Source: Saccostrea echinata (taxonomy: Eukaryota). From it: a stretch of 64,000 nt of DNA. The position numbers and the translations under genes are program-made. The DNA is taken from positions 2,170,001 through 2,234,000 of the forward strand of contig NW_026889821.1 in the NCBI RefSeq assembly GCF_033153115.1, in the 5' to 3' direction. Below, piece after piece: positions 34,101 through 63,908 of this stretch. Every line of letters begins with the position of its first letter. The stretch's first letter is position 1. Under the pieces are notes generated by a model. The model ran no database searches, had not been told where the DNA came from, and worked only from the letters and a program-made list of their open reading frames with translations.

Positions 34101-37100
34101 TCTTTGTTGAAGAGTTATCTCCCTCTTTTTTTAAGTAATAAAAATCAATTTTAAAAAAATATACGGTAAAAAAATTGTTTTCAATTGTCATTCTATTTCT
34201 AATGATTTAGACATAGTGGATCTTTCCACCACAGTAGTTATTGATATTCTTATTATCTGAATTTTTATTTTAAAAAAATCGCTTGTCTCCATAGACTTCA
34301 ATGCAATTTCTATTAATTAAATACTGCTTAGTTAATTACGTTTTTGAAACTTTCACTTGGTAAATCCTTTTCTACTGTAAAGTTCTTTGAATTAATATCA
34401 GAGTATTATATACGTGATTGATATTTAAGGATAGAGAATTAGTTCCTATTAGGGATGGAAAACCTTAATAAGACAAGTCTACCTGATCATTAAAACTATG
34501 AAAGTACTTTTTGTATTATACAATAAAAATTCTTACATAATTCTCTTATTCTATTAACCTTTCAAGTACATTATTTACAGTGATTAATTATCACAAGTAA
34601 ATGGCAAAGGGGAATAACTCCTCTCAGTAGAATACAAATTAATAGAGCCCTGACCTGGACTAGAACACTTGACCAAATGGTCTTGATGTTCAAAAATCTG
34701 GTAAAAATACCCTTCCTTATTAAAACTTTTACCCTTTTTGCCTCTGATATGCCCAGGTGCAGAGAAGATTTTTAAAGCATTAATGCATTTTCACTATATA
34801 ATAAATAGAGTCCCGCCCTAACATCAGAACCTCTGATCCAGGGGTCATGAAATTCACAAATTTGGAAAAGGCATCCTTGCTTATCATAACCATGTATTTG
34901 TTTAAATAATACCCAGGAGAAGAGAAGAAGCTTTTCAAAGAAATAATGCACTTTCACTACAGTACCGACCAGACACAACCTAACAGAAAGCGAACCCAGA
35001 GCGCACCCCGGGTTCGCTTTCTGGGTTCGCTTTGGGTTCGCTTGGGGTTCGCTATAGCGAACCCGGAGCGAACCCGCAGCGGACCCCGAGCGAACCCGCA
35101 GCGGACCCAGAGCGAACGCCGAAAGCGAACCCCAAATTCAGTAGCGAACCCAGAGAGCGAACGCGCGTTCGGTGTTGCGTAACAGAGCTGTCAATCAGGA
35201 TTAGCGATAAAACGTGTTAACCAATCAGCGGGTCGACCAATCAGCATGCCAGTTTATCATTCGATGTAAATAAAACATTGTACAAGCAAAGCGTGTTAAT
35301 GTACAGTGTGAAACTATTTTAACATTATCAAAAAAAATAAATTAATATATTTTAATTATCCAGGTAGCATATTATATTTACACATTTATTTATTTATTTT
35401 TTATTTTCAAAATCCATTAATATATATTGCGTAAATTTATCAGACAAAACATACTCTAATGTATAAAAGAAATAAAAAAGAAAGCAATGGTTATTACAAT
35501 TGTTACATAAATAAAAAAAATGGTTTCTGATAAATTATAGCATTTCATCATCTCAAGATACTGTACAAGATTATGTATATGTACGTGCTTTTATTCAATT
35601 ATTTTATGTTTATAATTCTAATATACATTATCGTTTAAATCCAGATCAACATCAAAATAATTGATCTTCTTAACTGAAAATAAAAATAAAAAAAATGAAT
35701 GTACAGAATAAATGTACATGTACTAATATGTCCAATCGCAAACTACTACATTAAGGTACTAATTTGATTAATCTTTTACAAAAAATAATGTATAGCTTGA
35801 TTTAGCTTTTTTTTTTTTAACTGAAATAAAAAGAAAAATGAAGCGCGATTTACATAATTGAACGAACTAATTATCGGAGTAACTAAGCAAAATGGTAAGT
35901 TGTACAATATTGTATTCTCTTAAAATATCGTAACTTTTACTGATAAAGCGTATTTAAGATGTTTAACGATTTTTCTCTGATGTTAATCATGTTAACTGCT
36001 GATTGTAGTCATGGTATTTTTATATCAATACATCAAAAATGTATATTAAAAAAAAAAAAGAAAGAAAGAAAAAAAAACAAATCCCGATACTTACATATAT
36101 TTAGTCGGCAAATGTATACGACATAATTGTCGGGGTTACTTTTCATCCCTGATACTTGTTATTATTTTTTTTATATATATCATTTCTGCAAATGAATGAT
36201 TTTTTAAAACAGATTGCTGATTTTTGAAATTCATAAATGGAAAGATGATTATAGTATAATTCATTTTTAGGCCATTTTTAAAAATCTACCCCCTTACTGC
36301 ATATCATAAAATCCAATTGAATCAAACTTCACGACCAACCTACATGTACATGTATATCATGTGATAGAAAATGCAGCATTCGATCATAAATGACATGTTT
36401 TGCATGTCAAAAACATAAAAAAAAACAATTTTTCCTAAGTCTGATATTTACATAAATAATCATTTGTAATCTAAAATGACTATTAAGTCTTATTTACATG
36501 TAGTTTCAAAAATATTCATTTCTAAATATTTTATTTTTCTTTTAGTTTTATAAGTCGATGAATTTCACCAGTAAATATTTCTAATCTAAAATATCTATTA
36601 AATAAATTAAGCTTTATTTCGTCTAAAAAATATCCACTCCTAAATATTTTGAACTATTTTGCGTACAAAAATTGTGCGTTTGCAGTAACAGTTGTGAATG
36701 ATCGTGTAACATGAAGAATCGTGTGATTGAAGGATTAATCTTGCGAAATCGTTCGTGTAACGTGATCGTTCCTATATGTTGTCAACAATAACGTTGCAGC
36801 CATTGTACATGCACATGTATCGATCGCCTCAGAAATAACAATGATCAATTTCACTACTGTATTTGGAATATACAAGGGGCGGGGCTTACTGGTGGCAAGA
36901 TTAAAGCGGTGTCCGCTTCACGCATGAGTGCATAAAGCGAACGCAGGAAGCGAACGCCGGGTTCGCTCTAGCGGACCCAGAGCTGATCCCGAGCGAACCC
37001 GAAGCGCACCCAAGGCGAACCCAGAGCGAACCCAAAATTTCCGAAAACGGACCCGCAGCGGACCCCGAGCGAACCCAGAAAGTGAACCCGGGGTCCGCTT

Positions 37101-37770
37101 TGGGTTCGCTCTGGTGTTAGGTTGTGTCTGGTCAGTACTGTATATGATCTATATAGCCCCACCCTAGCACCAGAACCCCTGACCCAGGGGCCATGAATTT
37201 CAAAATTATGGTAGAGTCACTCCTGCTCATTATAACTATGTATTCGACTTGTTTCAATAATACCCAGGAGTAGAGAAGAAGATTTTCAAAGAATTAATGC
37301 ATTTTCATTATATAATCAAAAGAGCCCCGCCCTAGCACCAGAACCCCTGACCCAGGGGCCATGAATTTCACAATTTTGGTAGAGTCACTCTTGCTTATCA
37401 TAACTATGTATTCAATTTGTTTCAATAATACCCAGGAGTAGAGAAGATGATTTTCAAATAATTAATGCATTTTCATTATATAATCAAAAGAGCCCCGCCC
37501 TAGCACCAGAACCCCTGACCCAGGGGCCATGAATTTCACAATTTTGGTAGAGTCACTCTTGCTTATCATAACTATGTATTCAATTTGTTTCAATAATACC
37601 CAGGGGTAGAGAAGATGATTTTCAAAGAAATAATGCACTTTCACTATATGATCTATATAGCCCCACCCTAACACCAGAACCCCTGACCCTGGGGCCATGA
37701 ATTTCACAATTTTGGTAGAGTCACCCTTGCTCATCATAACTATGTATTCAATTTGTTTCAATAATACCCA

Positions 37771-37805
<35 letters not shown>

Positions 37806-38167
37806 CTTTCACTATATGATCTATATAGCCCCGCCCTAGCACCAAAACCCCTGACCCAGGGGCCATGAATTTCACAATTTTGGTAGACGGCTCAATGCTT
37901 ATTACAATCATGCCAACAGTTTGACTGCTTGATGTCCAGGAGTAAAGAAGAAGATTTTTAAAGATTGCATTAATTTTGATGGTTTTGGCCCCACCCCTCA
38001 GGCCCCAGGGGGGCAGGGGCCACGAATTTCGAAATTTTTGTTCCCCTTCACCCATAGATGCTATATGCCAAAATTGGTTGAAATTGGTTCACTGGTTCCA
38101 GAGAAGAAGCTGAAAATGTTCAAAAGTTTACGACCGACGCACGACACACGACGACGGACGAAAAGAG

Positions 38168-38207
<40 letters not shown>

Positions 38208-41200
38208 AGGAACATACCTCACAGACACAGATAATAGGACTATCAGATCTAGTGTCTAATCGAGAACAGATAATGTCAGCTTTGGATGAAATGGTGTGAC
38301 CCATTATTAATGCCTTCTTTGTCCCAATAAATGGTTGGCTTCTAGAAAAAACAATTATATGATTCAACAGTTTTATTGATGAAATCAGTCCTTAAAAGGA
38401 ACTTTTTCTCATCATTGTGAAACTTCCATGGGCATTGTTGAGCACATCAGTAAGAAAGCTAAGTTCATAAGAATGTCAATATTGAAGAAAAATAAGATAT
38501 ATATACAGTCCTAAAATAAAATTTCTCGGAGTGAAAGATTGGATGCACGGTCTCAGCCAAAGATCACATTTCTGAGTAAGGGTTAGATATCTGGTGAATT
38601 TCGAAATATTTGTTAATGACCTGAAAATTGGGGAAAATTCATCAGTTAATTGGTAATTGTATAACTCTTGTGCTTAATAAATGCATTGGTTTATGGTTGT
38701 AGCATTTAAAAGTTCTAGTACAATTAGAGATCATACTCAATTCCATCAAAAACAAGTTCTAAATTTATTGAGTTCCCTTACAATAATTGAAGTAAATGTA
38801 CTTACAAAGTATCAAAGCAAAAAAGTTGAAGCAACTTTTCAAATAAGACCTGGTATTTCCATTCTGACACTGCTTTCTGAGGCCTTTCTGTGATAATACT
38901 GTGTAGATAAAAGCTGATTTCATGCAGTTTAACAGACAACCTGCAAAAATAATTAGTATGTTTTTCATTCTAATATTTGCTAGTAAAAGGTCAGCCTTCC
39001 AGTGGTTTCAAGCTGATATGCATCCTAAAAGTCTGTATGATCAGTGCCTGACTCTGAGATTTGTTACATGTTTTACAGTGCACTAGCTGTTTTGGGTCAG
39101 CCCCCCCCCCCCCCCCCCCCTTTTCATTTCAGATGGTTACATGTATTGTATTTCTTGGTGAACCTTTTAATTTTATTGCTTGTCACAAGTTTTATGTACA
39201 CAGTCAGCAAAACAGTGGCTACATATAAAAAAAAAGGGCTTAAAGGCTTATGCTCCTTCTGGCACAAACAGAGTAAGATTAAGTATTATAGGGATTTCAT
39301 CCTTGCCTATAATAAGCGAAAAAAGTGTATGGTATTGACTTACTAAATCATGTAAAACAGCCTCATGAATCCTCCAGGGCATGGAGAGGATATATGTAAT
39401 AAGTAAGTAAAACATGTAATGAACAAATAAACTTTACTCTATTGGAAAGAGCATACTTCTCTTTTGGAATTTAATGAAATTCTTGTGCATATAAGAAAAA
39501 CTTCAAAAGTTTATGCAGCTGTCTAAATGTATGTTTCTCAAAATAAGTGCATTTAAAACTGCTTTATTAAAAATACTTAACCAAGTTAACATTTCCCCAC
39601 ATAAACATTTTTTTAAAAAATCTTCAAAAATGAGGAGAGTCAAACTTTTTAATATTAAAAAAAAAATCTACTCCCCAGACTATATGATATACATATCTAC
39701 ATGTATAGTACCAATCTAATTAAAATTTATTTAGATGTTCCGAATCTGCTACCGCTTCTCAGACATCTAACAATATCCCATTCGGGGTCACGTCAGAGGG
39801 ACCTTTCGATTACCCAATGAAATCGCCGTCTCCAAAATCTTGGCTTATAGTTTGTATGCATTTCTTTTTTTACTGCCGAACCTAAATGCCCGAGGGGTTT
39901 TGTAGTAAACAAAATATGCATGGTAAAGACCGAGCTATACATAAATGTGATGTGCGGGATATTCTGACGTATAGTTTGTGCATTTTTGTTTGCATTATTC
40001 AGGTAAGAATGACAGATTGGTGGACAATACCGCAATGTTCTATTTATACCAAAATTACTTTAATTCAACATGTTCAATGTAACACAGTCTACTGAGCATC
40101 AGTATGTTAAGATGTAGCAGTGGAACTAATTTTAGAATCATATACAGAAGCTTGAATCTGATTGGCCAAAATTTTTATGTTTATTCATAATTGAAAGGTC
40201 TCTCTGACATGACCCAGAAAGGGGTGTTGTTAGATGTTTCAGAAGCGGTACCGGATTCGGAACATCTAATTTTAATTAGATGGCTATAGTACATGTAGCT
40301 TTTCCAATTAATTAATTAACATGCTTAGGTGGAAACTTTTAGTACTCCAGTGTATGCATAACCTGTTCTCTGGGAGGAAAAACAAGCTACATTGTGTGGC
40401 GGTCAGACGGATTCGATCGCCGGTGGCCAGATAGCTCAGTTGGTAGAGCACCTGACTGGAGATTCAGGGGGCCCGGGTTCGAATCCCGATCTGGTCTGCT
40501 GCATTTTTCTCCTCTCCCATTACATTTGGTGCCGTGCCATGCCCTGGAAGTGACAGGTGAAAGACCTACCAGGGAAGAGCCTGGGTTGGTGTCTTCGGGG
40601 GCCGAATTCCTTTAAGGAGGGAGGAATGTGGCGGTCAGACGGGTTCGATCGCCGGTGGCCAGATAGCTCAGTTGTTAGAGCACCTGACTGGAGATTCAGG
40701 GGGCCCGGGTTCGAATCCCAGTCTGGTCCGCTGCATTTTTCTCCTCTCCCATTACAATTGCACTATTACTAATGGGAAAGGTTACAACAACAGAGAATCA
40801 CAGTGGTATGAAATATTGGCAATCTGTCTTACCAAAGAAAGATAACTCTGACTTGTAAGTGAGAATAGAACTTTCGAGACATGCTTACCAATGCAGATTC
40901 ACCATTCTTTCGTTTTCTTTTAAACTCAACATCATCATCTGATTTTCATCTGGACTCCATTTTTTCCTCAGTTTCTCATATGTGCCCTTTCTCTCGGGAA
41001 ATTCTTCTATCGACTCGTAATCAAATTCAAAATCACAGGCACTTACTAGAGTATCTACTTTTGTAATAGAATCGCTTGAGAGACGAAGTAAGCACCACCT
41101 ATTTAATATAATTTTCAATACGTCCTCTTTGAAAAAGCGAACGCCAAGTTTGTCAACGAAATGAGGGGTCCATTCACAACTACTTGAATTTTTTGTCCAA

Positions 41201-41241
41201 GAGTCACATGAACAGTCCGATTTTGGCAAAGTTGTTGCCAT
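28159..41241 (-). CDS. Gene D: uncharacterised PD-(D/E)XK restriction-endonuclease-like fold protein (~355-372 aa)
   Basis: Exons 41241-40889, 38940-38806, 38341-38218, 32347 (or 32398)-32273, 30444-30283, 28377-28159. All GT-AG, phases 2/2/0/0/0, continuous frame: ..VSEWKYQVLFEKLL..ISSKADIICS..PIICVCE..CPPKKKMK..LWAQHIGDLL..VLGITIDKTWVRFTYL..FYSEPYNYLSREDRKIIFKAL. Probable 5'UTR exon ends at 42015 (CAG|GTAAGT) with acceptor at 41300. The fold call is an inference. Confidence 0.8.
28412..29609 (-). mobile_element. HINE / non-autonomous Helitron (Helentron-type) with internal tandem units
   Basis: Ends GCTCACCTGAGCA (28435-28447) and CAGACAGACAAC..TGATCAGAAAA..TGAAGTGAGCTAAAA. ~170-bp units at 29030-29340. 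Confidence 0.75.
29696..30242. mobile_element. MITE with TIR CACGGCTCTCA, containing a nested inverted-repeat element (~29929-30155)
   Basis: CACGGCTCTCA..TGAGAGCCGTG with flanks ATATCA/ATATTA. Inner IR AGGATCATGAAACA..AAGTCAAA / TTTGACTT..TGTTTCATGATCCT. Confidence 0.65.
30476..30610. repeat. ~135-bp palindrome next to the gene D exon-5 acceptor
   Basis: AATATTGCATG.AGTTGAGTGTAACATTGAAAATTTTCACCCC pairs with GGGGTGAAAATTTTCAATGTTACACTCAACT.CATGCAATATT. Confidence 0.85.
32528..33294. mobile_element. Non-autonomous DNA transposon, ~40-bp TIR, 5-bp TSD TTGAT
   Basis: TTGAT|CAGTCCAGTCCATTTTGAAAAACTGTAATATTACA .. TGTAATATTACATTTTTTCATAATGGATTGGACTG|TTGAT. Confidence 0.8.
33490..33612. repeat. 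Short hairpin MITE
   Basis: CATAAAACTTAC..TTTTGATCTTGGTCTCAC pairs with GTGAGACTGAGATCAAAA..GTAAGTTTTATG. Confidence 0.65.
33636..38208 (-). mobile_element. HINE / Helitron-N with ~166-bp Cg170-like tandem array, interrupted by a nested DNA transposon
   Basis: Terminal AACAAGAGGCC..GGTCACCTGAG and GACGACGGACG..AGGTCACCTGAGTGACTCAGGTGACCTAAAA. ~166-bp units CCCCGCCCTAGCACCAGAACCCCTGACCCAGGGGCCATGAATTTCAC at 34770-34957 and 37143-37980. Confidence 0.85.
34960..37140. mobile_element. Non-autonomous TIR DNA transposon E1 (CAGTAC ends, TA TSD, GCGAACCC subterminal arrays)
   Basis: TIR CAGTACCGACCAGACACAACCTAACA. The TA duplication is shown by the uninterrupted satellite unit GCACTTTCAC-TA-TATGATCTATATAG at ~37635 and ~37803. 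Confidence 0.92.
39709..40286. mobile_element. MITE with ~110-bp imperfect TIRs (possibly Academ-like)
   Basis: ATCTAATTAAAAT..TAGATGTTCCGAATC.G.TACCGCTTCT..GTCAGAG.GACCTTTC is mirrored at 40190-40286. Possible TAG TSD. Family uncertain. Confidence 0.7.
40395..40756 (+). mobile_element. Complete miniature LTR retrotransposon with tRNA-derived LTRs (Ajax-type TRIM)
   Basis: LTRs 40395-40524 and 40627-40756 (130 bp, TG..CA, about 5 mismatches). PBS TGGTGCCGTG at 40527 (complementary to the tRNA-His 3' end), PPT AAGGAGGGAGGAA at 40614-40626, 4-bp TSD ATTG. Each LTR holds a cloverleaf with A/B boxes (40425-40497, 40657-40729). Confidence 0.92.
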
Positions 41242-43257
41242 TATCTGATTATAATCGTTTCACTGACTTTTCCTTGTGTGGCCTTTTTTTCATTTTTTCC
41301 TGAAAAAAAAAAAAAACAAAAGTAGAGAAATATTTTACGTCATCTCGATCCCGATTTAATTTCTAAAGCGTAAAAATATTTTTCTCTTTATAAATTTTAT
41401 TTCTTTAAAGTTGTATACTACATGAACATGTACATGTATTTTCACTTCTATTTCTAAAGCTGGAACAGTATGGAAATAATATGTTTACAATTAGGGGGTT
41501 ATCATCTTTTTTTATGATACTGATGAATAATACTTGATTGTGAATCTTTATTTTCTATTATTAGCAAGTTTATTACCTTGTTCAAGTATTATTATTCAAT
41601 GTCTATGTCTTTACCTATTATAATACAAGGAGAGGGTGTGCATAGGCTTTGCCTGTTGCCCAATCCTTATTGAATTACTCAATAAAATACGTTTAAATCA
41701 CATGTATTCCTAATGTTTTTTTTTTTAACCTGAGGATTTTTTCAAAGATTTTTCTGTATCTTTTCTAATTTATTGTCCTGAGAAATGTTAATTGCGACTC
41801 TTCCTTGAGACATTATAGCATTTTTCAAGACTGGGGCACCGTTTTTAAACAGACTTAAATCTAAAATAAATGCCCTGTAATTATAATATAAGTGGTCAAA
41901 ACTTAAAGACGTTGGTGGAAAGAGATTTTTTTAATCCAACTTTGACTTTGCGCCGCGAGGTATATATACATTTAAAGAGCGTAGGAACGTTAATTAATCA
42001 AGACACCCACTTACCTGTGGCCCGTGTGGGAATATTAAAAAAAAAAAGATAAACTTTATTTAAATAAAATGATAGCGACTGAATTAAAAAAAAAACACCT
42101 CGAAATTCATAAAGGTCAACTCCACTTTTTTAAGAAGCAATTGCGACTATCAAAATGAGAAAAGAGACTTGGTACAGGAAGTATAATTATCCTGAACAAA
42201 CCTTATGCATGTTATGCCCTCTCAATACTTTACTAATTCATTTTCATACAAATCCTTGGCACCGTTTGAAACTTTATTCTAAGTCTTATTCTAAGTCTGT
42301 ACCTCATGAATTCTCAAAAATTAAGTTCATATCTTATATTTTCATTATATTTCTTATGACTTGCCACATATTTTTGTCATTCATTAACTATAATTTAAAA
42401 AAAAAAAAAGCGAGTTGAATTTCCACTATTTTTTGACGTCAATTATGTCACTATGGAAATATTCTTACTCATCTGCAGTTCACGAGAACGTGACTCAACT
42501 TTTTTTCAAATTTGCAAAGAGTCTTAAGGAAAATTTTTGGAAATGTAATTAAGATATCAGAGTGCACTTTGAATTTTGCACGAATACAGGTCAGGTACAT
42601 TGCATGTAATTTGAAAAAAAAAGTTTACGTTACCTATTCAAAATATAGAATAGATTTTTACACACATTTTTTGTAATGAATTAAGCTTTAATTTACATAA
42701 AAGACAGTGCAATTTTTCTACATTATTTGCATGGAAGATTTGATCCCATGTGGATTACAGCTGCTGTGAAAATGGTATTAAGATGGAGGGAATATGTAAT
42801 GGAGCTTTATGAAATCACCACACCTTTGACTATTACTTACATCCATATATCAAAAAGTGACATACATTCATTTCAATATTTAAATTATTTGCTCGATTTT
42901 CTTTATTGTTTGTTTCCAAGAAATTCCATAACCCAGTTGATCAAAGCATTGCATCAAAGACTAGGGAAATATCACTGTATGTCCTGCTTATTACCATTCA
43001 AAAGGTTTTATTGTCTAATTGCTATCATCGATTAGCGTAAGTGTCATTCATTCCAGAACCAACTGGAAGGGATCTCTGTACAAAAAGGTCATCCAGGGAC
43101 CAAATGTGCATACAGTGGGTGGTGGCTGAGAAGAGTTTAATTTGTCGGTAACTCTTCTGTATTATACATGCATCACATGTTATGATAAAATCACAATCGT
43201 TATACATTCCCACTATTTTTTATGTTTTCTATTCATGGAATTCCATATACGACAGTC

Positions 43258-43327
43258 AACTGCTTACTGCCAACTGCTCACTGTTTACTGCCAACTGCTC
43301 AATGCTTACTGCCAACTGCCACTGCTC
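43258..43327. repeat. 21-bp minisatellite (ACTGCTTACTGCCAACTGCTC-like) x~3.5
   Basis: TTACTGCCAACTGC is repeated at 21-bp spacing. Confidence 0.85.
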
Positions 43328-44709
43328 ATAGATGATATTGCCTGTTTTATTATCTTTAATATCTTTAATACGCATGCTTAATTGAATAAACCCTATGATA
43401 GATTACAATAATAAAAAAAATAATTGGCGGATTCAGGAATTTTTAAACTGTGAAGGCAAGGAAGGAATAAATACATCTAATTCCCACATTTCCTTGCAGG
43501 CAAATAATTCAAAAGATTTCTTGATAGGGAAGGGGGTATTAATTAAAGGCTTATATACGTCAGAAAAAAATGGGAGGGGGGACTTTCAGTAGGATCTTGG
43601 GTTACATTTGTTGGTATATGTATTTATATCAGAAATACTTATTAAAAAATCATGAAGACCTTTTACTCTATGTAAAAATAGTTGATCTCAGGCAAGGAAA
43701 ATCAAATTCAGTGCTTGGGGGGGGGGGGGGCACAACCCAACATAGTTCCCTTGAGAAGGAATTTAAATTTATAAAGGAATTTATATTTATAAACTGATTA
43801 TTTTTGAAAAATTGCAGATGTGTAGTTATTTCTGGAATTCCGAAAAAATACGCGTTTCCCGTTTCCTTGTTGTACCAGTATTTGCTAGGATCCATTTTAT
43901 AAAATATTACAGCAATTGCATTAATGATCTAAAAAGAACAACAACAACAAAAATATTTATTGTGCGCATCAATTCAGAAAAAAAAATTGATGAAATAAAA
44001 TTCAGTGAATTCGTGCAATAATTCAAATCTCAATTGCCTTGTTGCGCAAATCAAATGAGCTGAAGATAATAATCAAATATTTAAATAATTATATTTTTAA
44101 GTATTTGAGCGTATGTTCATTTAGCTCGCTATAGTACAGTATTTGATATTCAAGTTATTGTTATTCAGCTTTTAAATCAAACTTTTTTTTTTTACCCGGA
44201 TGTTTTTTTTACAAGCTTATTCTTCAGTTAATGTTATGGAATGGGTATTAGAACTTTTAAGGAAATAGTTTCCCATGGGGAAAAGCATAGATATATGTAT
44301 ATATCTGCCGAAACCCCATTCCATAGCTGTTTAATTATACGGAAACAATTCAGACATTTTTATGTAAACTACCTATTACCTTTTAAAATTTACGAAAAAA
44401 ATATTTATTGCAATTTTTATAATCATAATTTTGCCATCATATCAGCTGATTTTGTCTTCAAAAATTATTTTCTACATGTAGAGGAAAGGAAATTGTTGAA
44501 AATTTGCAATAAATTCTATCACCTAGTCTAAAACTTTTAAAAGGTCCCGGCAAAAATATATAAACAACTGCTGTTTGTAGAAATATGAAGGAGAAAAAAA
44601 AGATGGACTTGAAGTCTTGTCATAAAAAACAAATCAAACTTGAAGGGTGAGATAAGGTGTTTCAAATGCTTCCTAAGTCGAACCGCTTTCCGTTTCAAAC
44701 AGATTAATA

Positions 44710-45031
44710 TCGCATTGTGCCTTTTTCTAATATTCAGGCATTTTTTATCGGAAGGCCGTGGGTTCAAACCCTGGCTGCAATTGACCTAAGTCAATAAAAA
44801 AAGGTTGCAAATGTTCCTTCTCCAAGGGCTCAGCGTTTGAAGTGAAAGTTGCGGTCTTTCGGATAAGACCTTAAAAACCAAGGTCCTGTGTCACGGTAGG
44901 CGTTGGCACGAAAAAAGATCCCTCACTGCTCAAAGGCACTGAGTGTCGAGTAAAGGTCTACATTTTAAGACCGGTATATGGTGACGTCTCTGTGTGAGTA
45001 AAAAAAATTCTCAAATGTGACGTAAAACAAT
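44710..45031 (+). mobile_element. tRNA-derived SINE with Meta and Deu/Nin domains (BivaMD-SINE-like)
   Basis: B-box GGGTTCAAACCC, GACCTAAGTC.., Deu-like GTCTTTCGGATAAGACCTTAAAAACCAAGGTCC..AAAGATCCCTCACTGCTC, tail GACGTAAAACAA. Confidence 0.75.
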
Positions 45032-45485
45032 ACATGTATAATCTATAGTCTACTAAGCCTAAAAGGTCGTTGGAAACTGATTAAGGTTTAAATAGTCTGA
45101 AATCACAAAGTTTTGGTGGGGGTTTATATATCATTGTTTTTGTGGCACATGTATCAAAGACCCATAAAATCTTGTCCTCTATGAAAATATTAAAATTTCA
45201 AACCACAGTAACATGTGTTTAACCATTAAATCAAACACCACAAACCATTTTTTTTTTTCATCAAATGAATCCAAGAAAATCTAAAACCCACGACGAATAC
45301 AAGTGATTTTACATGAATTACTACATTTTATTGACACAAAAAAATGAAGTACATATAGATATACATATCTATACTCTTGAAATAATAATAAAAAAATACA
45401 CTGCATTAAATTGGTAGTTTATTAGAGGAATTGCAAACTTTAAAGGGCGTTTCACTGTCATGAACTTCAATTACTGCACTACCTA

Positions 45486-47511
45486 CAGTACCAACCAGAC
45501 CCAACCTGACAGATAGCAGTCCCAGAGCAGTCCCGGAGACTGCTTTCTGGGACTGTTGTGGGACTGCTAAAGCAGTCCCAGAGCAGTCCCACAGCGGTCC
45601 CAGCAGTCCCAGCGGTCCCAGAAAGCAGTCACAGCGGTCCCAAAAAGCAGTCCCAGCAGTCCCAGTAGGCGGGGTTAATAATTTAATGGGCGGAGCTTAG
45701 TCATTACACAGTATGTCAACAAACAATGTCAGTAATATAAAGGCAGTTGAAATTTAATGATGCACTTCATTTTTTAGGAGAAAAAAGTGTTAGACATGTT
45801 ACATGTACAGCATATTTACAATTCTTATGTGACAATTATTTCTGAATAAATAACAAAACTGCAGTATATAAAAAATAATTATATTAAAAAAAGAGACTTT
45901 CACACTCAAACTGTAATTACAACCGTAGTTTATTAATTTGAAACTGCATATATTTTTTTTTTCTAGGAAATTAATCATGTGCTTAATAAAATGAATGGTT
46001 TATTTTAAGACTAGAATTCAATGACTTTGAAATACATGTAGATCCTACAAATATAGAGCAAGGCCGATTCCCATATTACTCCGTAAATTATGTTTTTCAT
46101 TGACGTTGAAACTTCAGAAAATATACATGTGTAACATGAATTTGACGACAGTTAATTCTTTATCAAATTTTGCTTACTAATATATTCTGGCTATCATTTT
46201 CATTGACTTGTCGATATAATTTTTGTAAGAATCTTTACGCAACGTAAAACAATTTCACTATAATATTTCCTGAGCCCCTACATCAGTGTGCATGTACATG
46301 TAATTCAGGCAAGTGACTATATCTCAGATATTTAAGAAATTAAACAATCCTGAAATACATTTATACCATGTTTATCAAAACAGGAGTTTTGCAGTTTGAG
46401 GAACGAAATAAATGTCATTGTTGACCAGTATGGTCAGTGATGTGTAACACTGATACCCAAATAACACGCGTGAACTGTCCGCTATTCATGCACAAAGGCG
46501 ATTGAAAATTAGCCAGTGTTTACACATTTTATACACCGTGTACGGCTTTTAATCGGCCAGACTATGCAGTTGTTAGGTGTATCTTGTTTTTCCTCAAACG
46601 TTCACAAAAAGAAATAAGAAATAAAACACAGATTTCGATATTTTCAACCATATTTATTTTAAAATATAATTTTATATATTTATTAAAACTTTTTTATAAG
46701 TTAAAAATAAATCCGGGATGACAGGAGATTATTTCATAGAAAGAGATTGTCCTTATTTGAATAAATTATTAGGTTCTATTTTGAAGCTGTAAAAAAAGAC
46801 AGCATTGATTTATTTTCTCTTTTTTTCCGTGATAGCTGCCTTTACATTCTAAAAATAATTATTTTCCAGTGCAGCATATATATAGCTTTGAAAATTTTCT
46901 AAAACTTTGATGGCGTGATTGTGTCCTCCTTTAAGACATAGAATAATGTAAATTTTAAGTACATAATTTAACAGCTTTTATTAATCATATAAATCATTTA
47001 GTTTCAAACACCTGCATTTACTTTAAATACACAGAATAAAAAAAAAATTATATTCTGATTTATGTTTTTTAAAGTGGCAAAACAACTTTTTATTATTACC
47101 AACATTTAATTAATTTTTCGAATGGATTTTACACTGTAATGGTGCGAAATCGGCGCTTGACGTTCATGTATACACATGTATCTTTCAGAAGCTAACAGTA
47201 TTTGTTAGTTTTTTGGAAAATTCTTGTTGATTAGTTTTCTTTTACAACTTCTCTGCTGAAAGTAAACAAAACTTCTGTACAAAATGAAACCTGCAAATTC
47301 AGAATACACGAGGGGCGGGGCTTTCTTGTCACTCAGAATCATTTTCACGCATGGGTGAACAAAGCAGTCCCAGGGACTGCTGGGACTGCTGGGTCTGCTT
47401 TCTAGAGCAGTCCGACAGCAGTCCGAGAGCAGTCCCACAGCGGTCCCAGAGCAGTCCCGGGGACTGCTTTTTGGGACTGCTTGGGTGTCAGGTTGGGTCT
47501 GGTTGGTACTG
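45486..47511. mobile_element. Non-autonomous TIR DNA transposon E2 (CAGTAC ends, TA TSD, GCAGTCCC subterminal arrays)
   Basis: TA|CAGTACCAACCAGACCCAACCTGACA .. TGTCAGGTTGGGTCTGGTTGGTACTG|TA. Confidence 0.92.
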
Positions 47512-61085: not shown

Positions 61086-63908
61086 CCTAGGGTAACTATG
61101 AACATTAAGGTCGTTTAATGCAATCGCAAATTAAACGCATTTAATTGATTTCCGAAAAACGCAGGGGGTAGGTCCTTTGACACTTTCCCCCGATTGCCGC
61201 GAGTATAAAAGAGGGGCGCACGTGGCGAATTCCTCCTCTTACTCAATAGCTACTCCAGCGTTCTGCACTTGTGATAATTGTTTCCCACCTACCACTCCCA
61301 CTTAAGAGAAATAAATCTTAGTTGTTGATAGATTGTAAGTTTAACATGTTTAGAATTGGGCCTGCTGCTGTTTCTGCTGTTTATTTTATTTTTCAGGTTA
61401 CGTTTATCTATGAACCTCTTTTATGTTTATGTGCACAAGATTGTGATCTACTTGCAATGGGACTGAAGACTGAAGATATGTTGCTGTCGCGGCTTTACGG
61501 ATGTGTCAGACAAGCAGAGACATTAGTCATCATTATATTATTGTTTATGTTTTATTATCTATTTTACATGCTTGGTAGAGCATGTGGTGGCTCGCTAAGG
61601 CTACCCTAGGATCCAATAGAAGCTTGCTATGGAGTGCACTGGGAGCTTGTGTGAGGGATCTGTTTGGTATAACAGTAACCTCGTACCCCGTTCGGTATAA
61701 CGGGTGGATTTATTTTGCCCTACTCAGTATAGTGGGCTTACCTGTTCGGTATAACAGGTAGTAGCCTCGCTAAGGAATCCCCTAGGAGGCAATTACATTG
61801 ATATCCCAGCTGACTCGCTAAGGGGTACCCTAGGAGTCGATTAATACATATTGTTACGCCTTGCTATGGATTACCCTAGAAGGCGAGGTGCCATAACGCC
61901 CGTTACCAATTTAGGTGTGTGGTACCCAATGATGGTTAAATGCTTGTCTGACATTTGTCATTGAAACAATTATTAAAGCTGTAGCCTTTTATCATCCAAA
62001 AACATGTTTTGTTATTTTTTCGGAAAAATATTCTATTAATCGGATTTACCCTCGAAATTGCTTTCTAATGGCTCCATTTTGTCCGTTTTCACGGTATATA
62101 CATTTGTATATGTTATTTCATTGGCTGTGAAACGAGGAGTTTGTCTGGAAATATTGGGTAGATGTACAAATATATTGATATTTGACTTGTCATGTAATGA
62201 TCTTGTATTACTTTTCCTGTTTGTCAGATAATCTGAAAAAAGAAAATAATTAAAATAATTTTGTATCTAAGTTGAATAAAATTATCAAAGCGTCAAATTA
62301 AAATCAAATTGAGATCAGTGCATGCTTTAAAAAAAAAAAAAAATTATAAAAAAAAAAATGAAGGGTTATTCAAATTTTAACACTGAATGTCTATCCTTTA
62401 CACTTCAACGTATTTATTTACCTAAGTTATGAATAGTTGTTCCTATACAACCATACTGAAAGTTACAATACTTCCTCAAACACCAACATCGATTTTGACA
62501 CTGTTTTCCGTATGATGGGTATGGACAGGAATCATTGCATTTCAAGCCATAAAACCCGATACTGCAAACTGGGAATATAGAAAAGTTTTAGTTTACTTAA
62601 AGATTTATGTGAAATATATGGAGATAACGAACAGTATTCAACAAAAGTCCACCAAACAATTCAAAATAGGAGCAGAGCAAACATGGACCTCCAAAACATC
62701 AGAGGGATCAGGTGCCATGGAGGAGTGAGCATCCCCTGCCGACCGGTCACACCCGCGGTGTGCTCCTTGTCATGATCGGGAAACAATGGAAAAAATCCGT
62801 CGACAATCCAGTGTGTAAATAATGGCCTCACAATTAGTATGAAAAACGTCAGTCAGCATTTGACTCAATGATAAATTGTATTTGCTGACAAGGTCATTGT
62901 ATCGACCATAGAATTTACGAAATGATGACTTTAAACGAGACTGCTGATATTCTTGTTTCATCAACTTGTTTGTCAATAATTTACCTCGTTTTAGAAATTG
63001 TACATACTTAAAGCATGCTCTTGCGCATCGAATCAACTGAGAGATATAAACCCCGTATGCAGGCGACGAAGGTATATTGCTCCATAAGTAAGGGATGTTG
63101 ACGATTGAAAAGTTAAATTCATAACGTTTATCATAAAGCTTGGTTGTTAGATTACCATTACTGTCTTTTTCAAGTAAAATATCCAAATATGAAACAGATG
63201 TGTCAGACTCTGAATTCTTTTTTTCTTTTGAATAATTGTGAAAGGTTTCAGTGGAACATCATAAAACATCATTGTTCACATGCATGGTCATAAGATTTAA
63301 GTGTAGAAATGTTTTCTGATCAAATCATTAAATGTACTCGTGCAATTTTAATATAATATAATAATAGGAATCTATTGGAATTTCTCTTCGGAACCATTGA
63401 TTAATTGAACGGGATGTATTGATTTCTTGTCATGTAAACACATCTACTGTTAAATTCGCGATGTTACTAGTAATGGTCTCACAGTGTCAGTTGATACTTT
63501 AATTGGAAGGAAAAGTTTTAAGAAGGGTATTGCTATACTCCTCTACTTGCATTTCGATTAGATTTCCTGTATCTCAATACAGGACTGCCAATAGTATATG
63601 TGTACGTATATATATATATATATATATAAAATAAATAAACAAAGAAAAAAAAAGAAAGAAAATTAAGGTATTTAAAAAAAATGTAACACATCCTAGGATA
63701 ATCATGAACATTAATAGGATTTTACCTTCAAATTTGCCTATCAATGGTTCCATTTTGGTTGTTTTCACGGTAAATGCATTTGTATATGATTTTTCATTGG
63801 CTGTTAAACGATGAGTATGTCTGAAAATATTGGGTAGATGTACATTTCTGTTGACATTTGACTTGTTATGTCCTGATCTTGTATTACTTTTCCTGTCTAT
63901 CAGATAAT
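51748..63908 (-). CDS. Gene E (5'-partial): MEGF-like type I membrane protein with repeated EGF + stalk units
   Basis: Exons 63908-63726 (stalk, 183 nt), 62568-62422 (EGF, 147 nt), 62232-62050 (stalk, 183 nt), 52353-52207 (EGF, 147 nt), 52031-51748 (stalk + TM KILIIFIIILGCVIFLLIIAHI + stop). All junctions phase 1 and GT-AG. EGF exon: CSIGFYGLKCNDSCPYPSYGK.CQNRCWCLRKYCNFQYGC. Continues past the right edge. Confidence 0.75.
52376..57218. mobile_element. EnSpm/CACTA(CMC)-like non-autonomous element, 2-bp TA TSD, ACGT-rich subterminal repeats
   Basis: TA|CACAGCTAGTTGTGCCACGTACGT .. ACGTACTTGGCACATTTTGCTGTG|TA. The empty site AAAAGTTT-TA-GTTTACTTAAAGATTTA is in the paralogous intron at 62581-62607. 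Confidence 0.85.
55095..56360 (+). mobile_element. HINE/Helitron-N nested in a second HINE, inside the EnSpm-like element
   Basis: Two successive heads, TTAGGTAACCTGAGTC..GACCTATTGCTAT and TTTTAGCTCACCTGAGCTGAAAGTTCAGGTGAGC + (GTCT)n. ~170-bp units at 55440-56020, with the remainder of the outer family at 56050-56360. Confidence 0.75.
57640..60968. mobile_element. Non-autonomous TIR DNA transposon E3 (CAGTAC ends, TA TSD, CACGGTG subterminal arrays)
   Basis: TA|CAGTACAGCTCACGAGTATCTTCC .. GGAAGAAACTCGTGAGCTGTACTG|TA. Empty site AATAG-TA-TATGTGTACGTA at ~63590-63610. Confidence 0.9.
61109..62035 (+). mobile_element. ~930-bp insertion without TIRs, flanked by (A)TTAA; possibly DIRS/Ngaro-like remnant or solo LTR
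   Basis: Absent from the paralogous site GAACA-TTAA-TAGGAT (63706-63720). Contains TATAAAAGAGGGGCGCACG, CCCACCTACCACTCCCAC and internal repeats CTCGCTAAGG..CCCTAGGA (x4) and TTCGGTATAAC (x3). Confidence 0.6.
62608..63211 (-). mobile_element. 5'-truncated Penelope-like retroelement (RT C-terminal/thumb region, Naiad-like)
   Basis: ORF 62770-63186: LDILLEKDSNGNLTTKLYDKR..FNFSIVN.P..SNIPSSPAYGVYISQLIR.ARAC..LKSSFRKFYGRY. Absent from the paralogous intron (57221-57250 AAAGATTTA-AGAATTCTTT). Confidence 0.85.

Follow-up and report, generated by a model that had tools for sequence, protein, structure and literature searches.

The 64,000-nucleotide stretch analysed here (the window) is part of contig NW_026889821.1 of Saccostrea echinata (RefSeq assembly GCF_033153115.1, positions 2,170,001 to 2,234,000), and it holds two insertions, E1 and E2, which an initial annotation had described as sister transposons with a common scaffold but a different motif repeated below their ends. 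We find that E1 and E2 lack genes and derive from two sister families of Tc1-like transposons, here called A and B, and that the long parents of both families carry, besides a transposase gene, a second gene whose product is predicted to end in a BEN fold. This two-gene Tc1-BEN architecture is the real finding. The observation made in the initial annotation is confirmed, and its interpretation, a lock-and-key address code rewritten in concert at dispersed sites, is partly supported.

The motif swap is plainly present in the window. Exact GCGAACCC occurs 16 times at the ends of E1 and exact GCAGTCCC 15 times at the ends of E2, with no copy of either in the interiors or elsewhere in the window, which is far above the counts in base shuffles of the ends (n = 2000; mean 0.03 and at most 2 for GCGAACCC, mean 0.016 and at most 1 for GCAGTCCC). 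The minor variants are GCGGACCC, found five times in E1, and GCGGTCCC, found four times in E2. Both elements have 26-bp inverted repeats at their termini (TIRs), starting with CAGTACC and differing at positions 8, 16, 23 and partly 12, and the part that can be aligned between them is limited to the TIR and the outer four motif sites (66-84 bp, 72-77% identity); the interiors gave no alignment. The common size of about 2.1 kb, which had been counted among the conserved features, is not homology, since the interiors cannot be aligned and family A also includes a 3.1-kb subfamily (an internal deletion derivative of its 21.3-kb parent). The insertion of E1 duplicated a TA dinucleotide, as seen from two paralogous units of the 168-bp satellite, at 37632 and 37800, that are empty and have a single TA, and this empty site rules out IS3EU/Academ elements with TAC termini; no empty site for E2 was found among the loci fetched. 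By BLAST, E1 matches both ends of the A parent (bases 1-289 at 89%, 222-752 at 67-73% and 1871-2181 at 91%), and for E2 there is a 75% match of bases 1812-2026 to the B parent's transposase-proximal end. The GC box that had been noted on the right side of both elements marks the transposase-promoter end, about 80 bp upstream of the start codon in both parents, and the two CCAATCAG boxes of E1 are likely to represent the promoter of the second gene in the parent.

Table 1. Features of E1, E2 and the E1 insertion target, in window coordinates.
Feature	Position	Strand	Remark
E1, non-autonomous family A element	34960..37140	-	2181 bp; right end corresponds to the 21.3-kb parent's transposase-proximal end
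TA target-site duplication left of E1	34958..34959	.	Second copy at 37141-37142; empty paralogous satellite units carry one TA
E1 26-bp TIR, transposase-distal end	34960..34985	+	
E1 distal array, 13 GCnnnCCC copies	34990..35151	.	Both orientations; mode GCGAACCC
Two CCAATCAG boxes	35221..35244	+	Immediately inside the E1 distal array
E1 GC box, remnant of transposase promoter region	36875..36887	.	Identical box 78 bp upstream of transposase ATG in A parent
E1 proximal array, 10 GCnnnCCC copies	36959..37109	.	
E1 26-bp TIR, transposase-proximal end	37115..37140	-	
168-bp tandem repeat, insertion target of E1	37141..37980	.	Continues at 34637-34959
E2, non-autonomous family B element	45486..47511	-	2026 bp; TA at both flanks
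E2 26-bp TIR, distal end	45486..45511	+	
E2 distal array, 11 GCnnnCCC copies	45516..45663	.	Mode GCAGTCCC
Two GC boxes	45668..45694	.	Immediately inside the E2 distal array
E2 GC box, remnant of transposase promoter region	47311..47323	.	Identical box 83 bp upstream of ATG in B parent
E2 proximal array, 9 GCnnnCCC copies	47364..47480	.	
E2 26-bp TIR, proximal end	47486..47511	-	

Across the genome, a degenerate TIR pattern had 1300 exact matches and a looser pattern 1626, with 0 for the reversed controls. Sorted by motif, the ends fall into two distinct sets, 588 of A type (315 + 273) and 804 with B TIR and B motif, and the two possible hybrid combinations of TIR and motif were each found 0 times genome-wide; in viral contigs the TIR had no match. 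E1 and E2 are thus non-autonomous, TA-duplicating transposons of which hundreds of copies exist. A sample of 109 distinct ends (65 A, 44 B; non-random, made up of first-listed and long copies) was taken, and TA precedes 108 of them. The 65 A ends contain 730 GCnnnCCC copies, among them 410 GCGAACCC, 127 GCGGACCC, 92 GCGCACCC and no GCAGTCCC; the 44 B ends contain 475, among them 358 GCAGTCCC, 87 GCGGTCCC and none of the A types (GCG[ACG]ACCC). Two variants are common to both families: GCGGTCCC, with 23 copies in A, and GCAGACCC, with 7 in A and 14 in B. Motifs on the same strand are spaced 11 bp apart in 72-74% of cases in A and 49-59% in B, the rest being 9 or 13 bp, so that the spacing of about 11 bp given in the initial annotation is modal, not fixed. 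The number of array units varies among copies, from 2 to 17 per end. Nearly all non-autonomous copies retain arrays at both ends even as the interiors diverge, and the one coding remnant, present in the 3.1-kb A subfamily only, consists of the transposase's first codons.

The autonomous partners that the initial annotation anticipated exist for each motif family, each with its own transposase and its own accessory protein of DNA-binding fold. The A parent (G000:C16:20362707-20384025) is 21.3 kb long with TIRs at both ends and a TA duplication; its two-exon Tc1-like transposase gene starts 334 bp inside the end that had been called right, and is followed by a convergent second gene with a last exon of 930 residues. 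Another copy, 99.7% identical, sits within satellite with a clean TA duplication (empty site), and a third, in a different flank, is truncated at 5.9 kb. Most other long pairs of A TIRs considered as parents proved to be nested insertions, and a pogo parent was rejected, as the best 30 DDE_1 loci had no matching TIR or array. For family B, transposases at two loci (on C42 and C6) lie 270 bp inside a B TIR with 8 B motifs and are followed by a homologous convergent gene. Identity to the A transposase was 66-69% in the protein search that revealed them and 68-83% when the B parents were compared, and the long B copies measure at least 18.4 kb. Both transposases are of the DD34E type, and that of A matches Pfam DDE_3 with 58 bits (cut-off 28.6), with HTH_32 and HTH_Tnp_Tc3_2 just below their cut-offs; the TA duplication, the DD34E DDE domain with paired helix-turn-helix (HTH) motifs and the CAG-starting TIRs are those of Tc1-like members of IS630-Tc1-mariner. 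The A transposase exons are joined at GT..AG in contigs from 3 of 4 public runs, the B splice joint is seen in 1 of the 4 with 24 letters on its short side, and the last exon of the A second gene is covered by contigs in all 4; the runs are two samples of one study whose RNA status was guessed by software, not recorded.

Some long copies have unusual structures. The long B copy at G000:C42:5190384-5215453 is broken at 18.4 kb by an E2-type copy that itself holds a second nested copy, and it is flanked by a satellite related to the 168-bp repeat of E1 (window 34637-37980). The 25-kb unit there has a transposase-proximal end on either side, both within one satellite, an arrangement which suggests an adjacent deletion or a composite move. 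A B copy at G000:C15:12367147-12441389 has no transposase and has kept the BEN gene. A decayed third lineage of the second gene was found at G000:C22:5564343-5576642, with a B-like last exon, a truncated A-like TIR and no array.

The second gene, which NCBI annotates in A as mucin-2-like (Saccostrea echinata), has three conserved parts: an N-terminal exon of 55 residues, a coiled segment and, after a long low-complexity linker, a C-terminal domain. Between A and B the N-terminal exon is 75% and the C-terminal domain 53% identical. The N-terminal domain matches no named family, and an A-type alignment of the C-terminal domain searched by sequence against the PDB found no BEN domain. In structural comparisons, the C-terminal domain scores 0.93 to BEN clusters of the ESM Atlas, and its AlphaFold2 model built from 27 relatives has a predicted local distance difference test score (pLDDT) of 93, against only 38 for a fold from the single sequence. 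All top rows of a Foldseek search with the model are BEN domains, and five BEN rows have Z-scores of 7.8-9.2, the next, unrelated row having 5.0; the best are BANP (Z 9.2, root-mean-square deviation 3.2 over 100), Bsg25A (8.5) and BEND6 (8.4). Pfam PF10523 matches 5 of the 27 relatives; for single families it gives no match in A, 16.7 bits in B (cut-off 23.2), and 33.6 and 32.1 bits, above the cut-off, in two families of the wider clade, F and G. On these models, the second gene of A and B is predicted to end in a BEN fold. Nonsynonymous divergence (dN) of the gene between A and B is 0.35 and synonymous divergence (dS) is saturated, as it is in 6 of 7 comparisons, so that no dN/dS ratio can be given; as judged from the sequences, the gene appears to be under purifying selection. 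Relatives of both the transposase and the BEN-fold domain occur in Mytilus, where they were found without genomic context. One Mytilus host protein (P0025) has a BTB domain fused to an A/B-type BEN domain, an architecture like that of NACC.

Further members of this transposase clade (48-56% identical to A in the catalytic exon, taken with 20 kb of context, n = 20) carry the BEN domain in 15 of 20 loci, the N-terminal exon alone in one and neither in four. Complete TA-flanked elements were found for families D (11.3 kb), E (7.5 kb), F (7.2 kb) and G (6.6 kb); for family L the element ends were not found. Their arrays have an ATCGT core in D and I, an ACCGT core in E, K, N and E2 (here a sister family), and CCGCG in F, G and H, the last in 5-8 copies per end. 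Families D, I, E, K and L have DD36E and a DNDSKH/DNDRKH motif, the signature of the published Tc1-like elements with introns (TLEWI), and transposase genes of 4 (D, I, L) or 3 (E, K) exons; their assignment to TLEWI was by these characters, not by a tree with the published sequences. In F, G and H (L180, L204-L205, L206-L207) an intron of the BEN gene houses the transposase, which is encoded on the opposite strand; in A, B, D and E the two genes are convergent instead. One D copy (C54:596102-599828) has a transposase without BEN gene. At one locus two sister ends 430 bp apart (L218:4165 and L218:4597) have nearly the same TIR and arrays of GCACGAAACGC and ACCGTACCGT type, which with family K makes a second case of one TIR scaffold with a swapped motif.

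Tc1/mariner elements are normally 1.3-2 kb long and have one gene. As a control, 20 ordinary Tc1 loci yielded 19 bounded elements, 18 of them of 1.34-1.37 kb, and none of the 20 had a BEN match or end arrays (the top 6-mer occurring at most 4 times). In a 36-row tree (one copy per family, rows covering fewer than 120 columns dropped, midpoint root), 13 oyster rows of the clade and 3 relatives split from the 20 ordinary Tc1 with branch support 100/99, and BEN is seen in 11 of the 13.

The residues that may read DNA can be compared with those of known BEN domains. BEND3-BD4 reads CCCACGC via Glu807, Arg810 and Lys815 (PMC8887127), and BANP reads CGCG (PMC11514455), according to the parts of these papers that were accessible. 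For the family F domain the match to BEND3-BD4 has E 5e-21; Glu807 and Arg810 are retained in it and likewise in G and H, and all three families have CCGCG arrays. From its sequence, this closeness of the F-type domain (L180:3433-3840) to vertebrate BEND3-BD4 makes a link by domestication or capture possible. At BEND3 positions 806-811 the residues are NESLRR in F and G, NECLRR in H, NSGIRS in D, NNGIRS in I, NTGLRR in E, NTGLRN in K, NKVIWK in A and DKANWK in B (the alignment register being supported separately). Arg810 is kept in all CG-core families except family L; A and B have Trp there, and the B motif has lost its CpG. The helix residues thus track the motif cores between subclades (same-motif D/I and F/G/H, same-core E/K), yet positions 807 and 810 are identical in A and B (Lys and Trp), so that the co-variation of DNA-binding residues with motif foreseen by the initial annotation holds between subclades, for predicted base-reading residues, and not between A and B.

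How the motif changed can be followed in part through a third family. Among 13 metagenome matches to the TIR pattern, 11 have arrays with the mode GCGGACCC, which is one base from the A motif and two from the B motif via GCGGTCCC; the other two (L232 and L237) have a similar TIR start and no array and represent an unrelated family or chance. A family with the intermediate as its mode points to a path between A and B of one base at a time. B has undergone G-to-A at motif position 3 and at TIR position 12, both CpG losses; it has A at both positions where the third family has G at both. The inner arrays consist of 9, 11 and 13-bp units in variable number and cannot be aligned between A and B; the four outer sites together make up one quasi-palindromic cassette. 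Its spacers are 3/5 in 22 of 35 A far ends, 22 of 30 A near ends and 10 of 22 B far ends, and flipped to 5/3 in 17 of the 22 near ends of B and 3 of the 4 of the third family, the remaining ends falling mostly outside the pattern. One cassette copied between ends in either orientation, together with slippage, would produce a concerted change without many parallel point mutations. Rewriting in place at dispersed sites is thus not what the arrays indicate, given inner arrays rebuilt from these units and outer sites that are one copied cassette. The initial annotation had named a continuum of motifs explained by simple slippage as the counter-case; an intermediate family does exist, and the change can be accounted for by slippage combined with flipping of the cassette.

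Taken as a whole, we favour, with evenly balanced confidence, an account in which the long parents encode both a transposase and a BEN-fold protein that would read the arrays with a graded preference in A and B. The transposase would bind and cut at the 26-bp TIRs, and the BEN protein would bind the subterminal arrays; this binding, which the account shares with a strict pairing of each BEN protein with its own motif, we regard as probable. Many BEN molecules about one helical turn apart could help to pair the ends of such long elements, by analogy with TnpA of CACTA, and array-bound BEN might also regulate the inward-facing promoters beside the arrays. Specificity would operate at two levels. 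Between subclades the motif core may change with the BEN recognition helix, in a true code; the BEN proteins of A and B would read the common GC...CCC frame, and any preference among the three central bases would be graded at most. The motifs of A and B probably arose from a GCGGACCC-like ancestor through single-base variants, in B including the CpG loss, and the variants would have spread by slippage of the 9/11/13-bp units and by copying of the palindromic cassette between ends. The families would be kept apart because TIRs, transposases and arrays diverge together.

A number of points weigh against this account. The binding of BEN to arrays is a prediction from sequence and models, and some BEN domains, such as BEND3-BD1, do not bind DNA (PMC8887127, in the part of the paper available). 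Pfam BEN finds no match in single sequences of A, D, I, E, K and L, and the BEN assignment in D, I, E, K and L is through a profile match to BEND3 at E 1e-3. Examination of 49.5, 39.6 and about 69 kb did not reveal the far TIR of the long B copies, and of the two B transposases one is frameshifted and the other has a changed conserved residue. As arrays, BEN gene and transposase share one history, their co-occurrence amounts to a single data point. Within the TIR, moreover, the stretch at positions 9-19 is normally held by the transposase in Tc1/mariner elements, and a 5-mer from this stretch of the family's or subclade's own TIR ranks first, alone or tied, as a source of array words in 7 of 12 families. 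The third-family arrays hold the TIR core in exact copies, and the transposase recognition helices, whose presumptive assignment follows general Tc1 HTH patterns, are not the same in A and B (P/Q and L/E; T/A and K/R).

These last points lead to another reader. The arrays could be additional sites for the transposase (for its RED or PAI subdomain), multiplied from the TIR core, with BEN regulating expression or chromatin, say. The mirroring of the TIR core is clear in D, K, F, G and C and ranks second in family E2, but it fails in I, E and N, with A ambiguous. B reads A, and the third family G, at both TIR position 12 and motif position 3, and relatives of the transposase at 77-85% identity keep the A residues in the RED and PAI helices, although TIR changes alone can explain changes in these helices. 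The direct repeats (DRs) and half-DR of Sleeping Beauty offer a precedent (PMC8151067, as far as its accessible text goes). Ordinary Tc1 elements of the same genome, on the other hand, have neither arrays nor BEN, and the F-type BEN and its CCGCG motif fit the known preferences of BEND3 and BANP independently. We consider a transposase reader somewhat unlikely.

The initial annotation's lock-and-key code, in its strict form, would have each BEN protein of A and B bind its own 8-mer only, with selection against cross-mobilisation driving the swap. TIR type and motif are indeed never mixed, with 0 hybrids against 588 and 804 matched ends, 0 of 730 copies at A ends reading GCAGTCCC and 0 of 475 at B ends reading GCG[ACG]ACCC, and each family has its own partners; yet separate descent alone predicts the absence of hybrids, the third family has an intermediate motif, and minor variants common to both families are retained at fixed sites. 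Between A (NKVIW) and B (DKANW) the recognition helix shows three neighbouring differences, and relatives with an intermediate DKAIW exist, but the canonical base-reading positions are invariant and the intermediate protein could not be linked to the GCGGACCC family. Strict pairing between A and B is therefore unproven, and we judge it improbable. That there is no protein reader, and that the arrays are slippage-born, hairpin-forming GC-rich repeats kept by end-to-end homogenisation, would agree with the variable unit number (2-17 per end) and quasi-palindromic layout but not with arrays retained at both ends of nearly all non-autonomous copies despite diverging interiors, modal 11-bp phasing and confinement to the BEN-bearing clade, and is very improbable indeed.

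Apart from these elements, the window holds a reverse-transcriptase-like open reading frame (ORF) fragment at 62770-63258, which by its look we take to be from a Penelope-type retroelement.

A clade of elements of up to 21 kb with BEN as second gene and CACTA-like arrays would show that a second superfamily has adopted the accessory-binder design. TLEWI, published as TIR-less and possibly domesticated, immobile genes, would become components of large mobile elements. Differing BEN recognition helices are paired with differing motifs in about a dozen families of one genome, and these come with built-in comparisons, both of the same motif (D/I, F/G/H) and of close families with different motifs (A/B, E/K), so that change in BEN specificity, and the co-evolution of ends and binder by selection or drift, become testable with short recombinant domains. 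At its widest, and as a tentative proposal that we hold to be doubtful, the clade would be a hitherto unnoticed lineage of Tc1/mariner, made up of giant two-gene elements (7-21 kb) and comprising TLEWI, with BEN as address reader in orthogonal reader-motif pairs down to A versus B, and would form a library of BEN specificities, possibly also a source of host BEN factors such as BEND3.

Bivalve L31 elements, which are DD37E, also have a second ORF. In our literature search, whose scope lay outside Repbase, Dfam and subscription papers, where curated entries may note a second gene, no Tc1 element with a BEN gene was found, and a survey of bivalves gives a mean TcMar length of 1935 bp and leaves BEN unmentioned in the portion available (PMC10294476). 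The parallels drawn below hold for the accessible parts of the sources cited. CACTA elements (En/Spm) are likewise long and of two functions, with a conserved TIR and reiterated direct and inverted subterminal motifs; these motifs are subfamily-specific (Tgm1 versus Tgmt, in one genome) and a co-evolving binder has been proposed for them (PMC2613891), so the concept is a known one. The present elements differ in their Tc1-like transposase, CAG termini, TA duplication and separate convergent or host BEN gene, and with no Tnp2-type transposase or CAC termini they are not members of CACTA/CMC. Sleeping Beauty, whose ends combine inverted and direct repeats (IR/DR), shares the Tc1 transposase, the TA duplication and extra subterminal sites (PMC8151067), but has two DRs per end read by the transposase and one gene in 1.6 kb, as opposed to a second gene and, at each end, about 10-13 short sites here. 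The TBE and Tec elements of ciliates are DD34E Tc1/mariner transposons with additional ORFs, which encode a zinc-finger protein or a recombinase and not BEN (PMC7325037). Mammalian BEND3-BD4 and BANP share the BEN fold and CG-core motifs, and the F domain has the Glu807 and Arg810 of the former (PMC8887127, PMC11514455); they are host transcription factors, however, and the A/B domain has an N-terminal extension and Lys and Trp at those positions.

The closest known system is TLEWI, described from pteriomorph bivalves (bioRxiv 10.1101/656579). In the available part of that preprint, flanks of 3 kb were covered, TIRs were reported absent in nearly all elements and domestication was proposed, and BEN is nowhere mentioned (10.1101/656579). 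TLEWI share with the present clade an intron-split Tc1-like transposase in oysters and mussels, and D, I, E, K and L have its DD36E and DNDSKH/DNDRKH; A and B group in the same clade with good support, and their intron, too, is placed before VHVW. The published description has neither TIRs nor target-site duplications; D and E, over lengths of 7.5-11.3 kb, have TIRs in pairs, TA at the flanks, arrays and a BEN gene. A and B depart from it further, with DD34E in place of DD36E, one GT..AG intron and two exons in place of 3-6 exons, and TIRs and target-site duplications present. Being DD34E with one intron, A and B are sisters of TLEWI and not members by the published definition.

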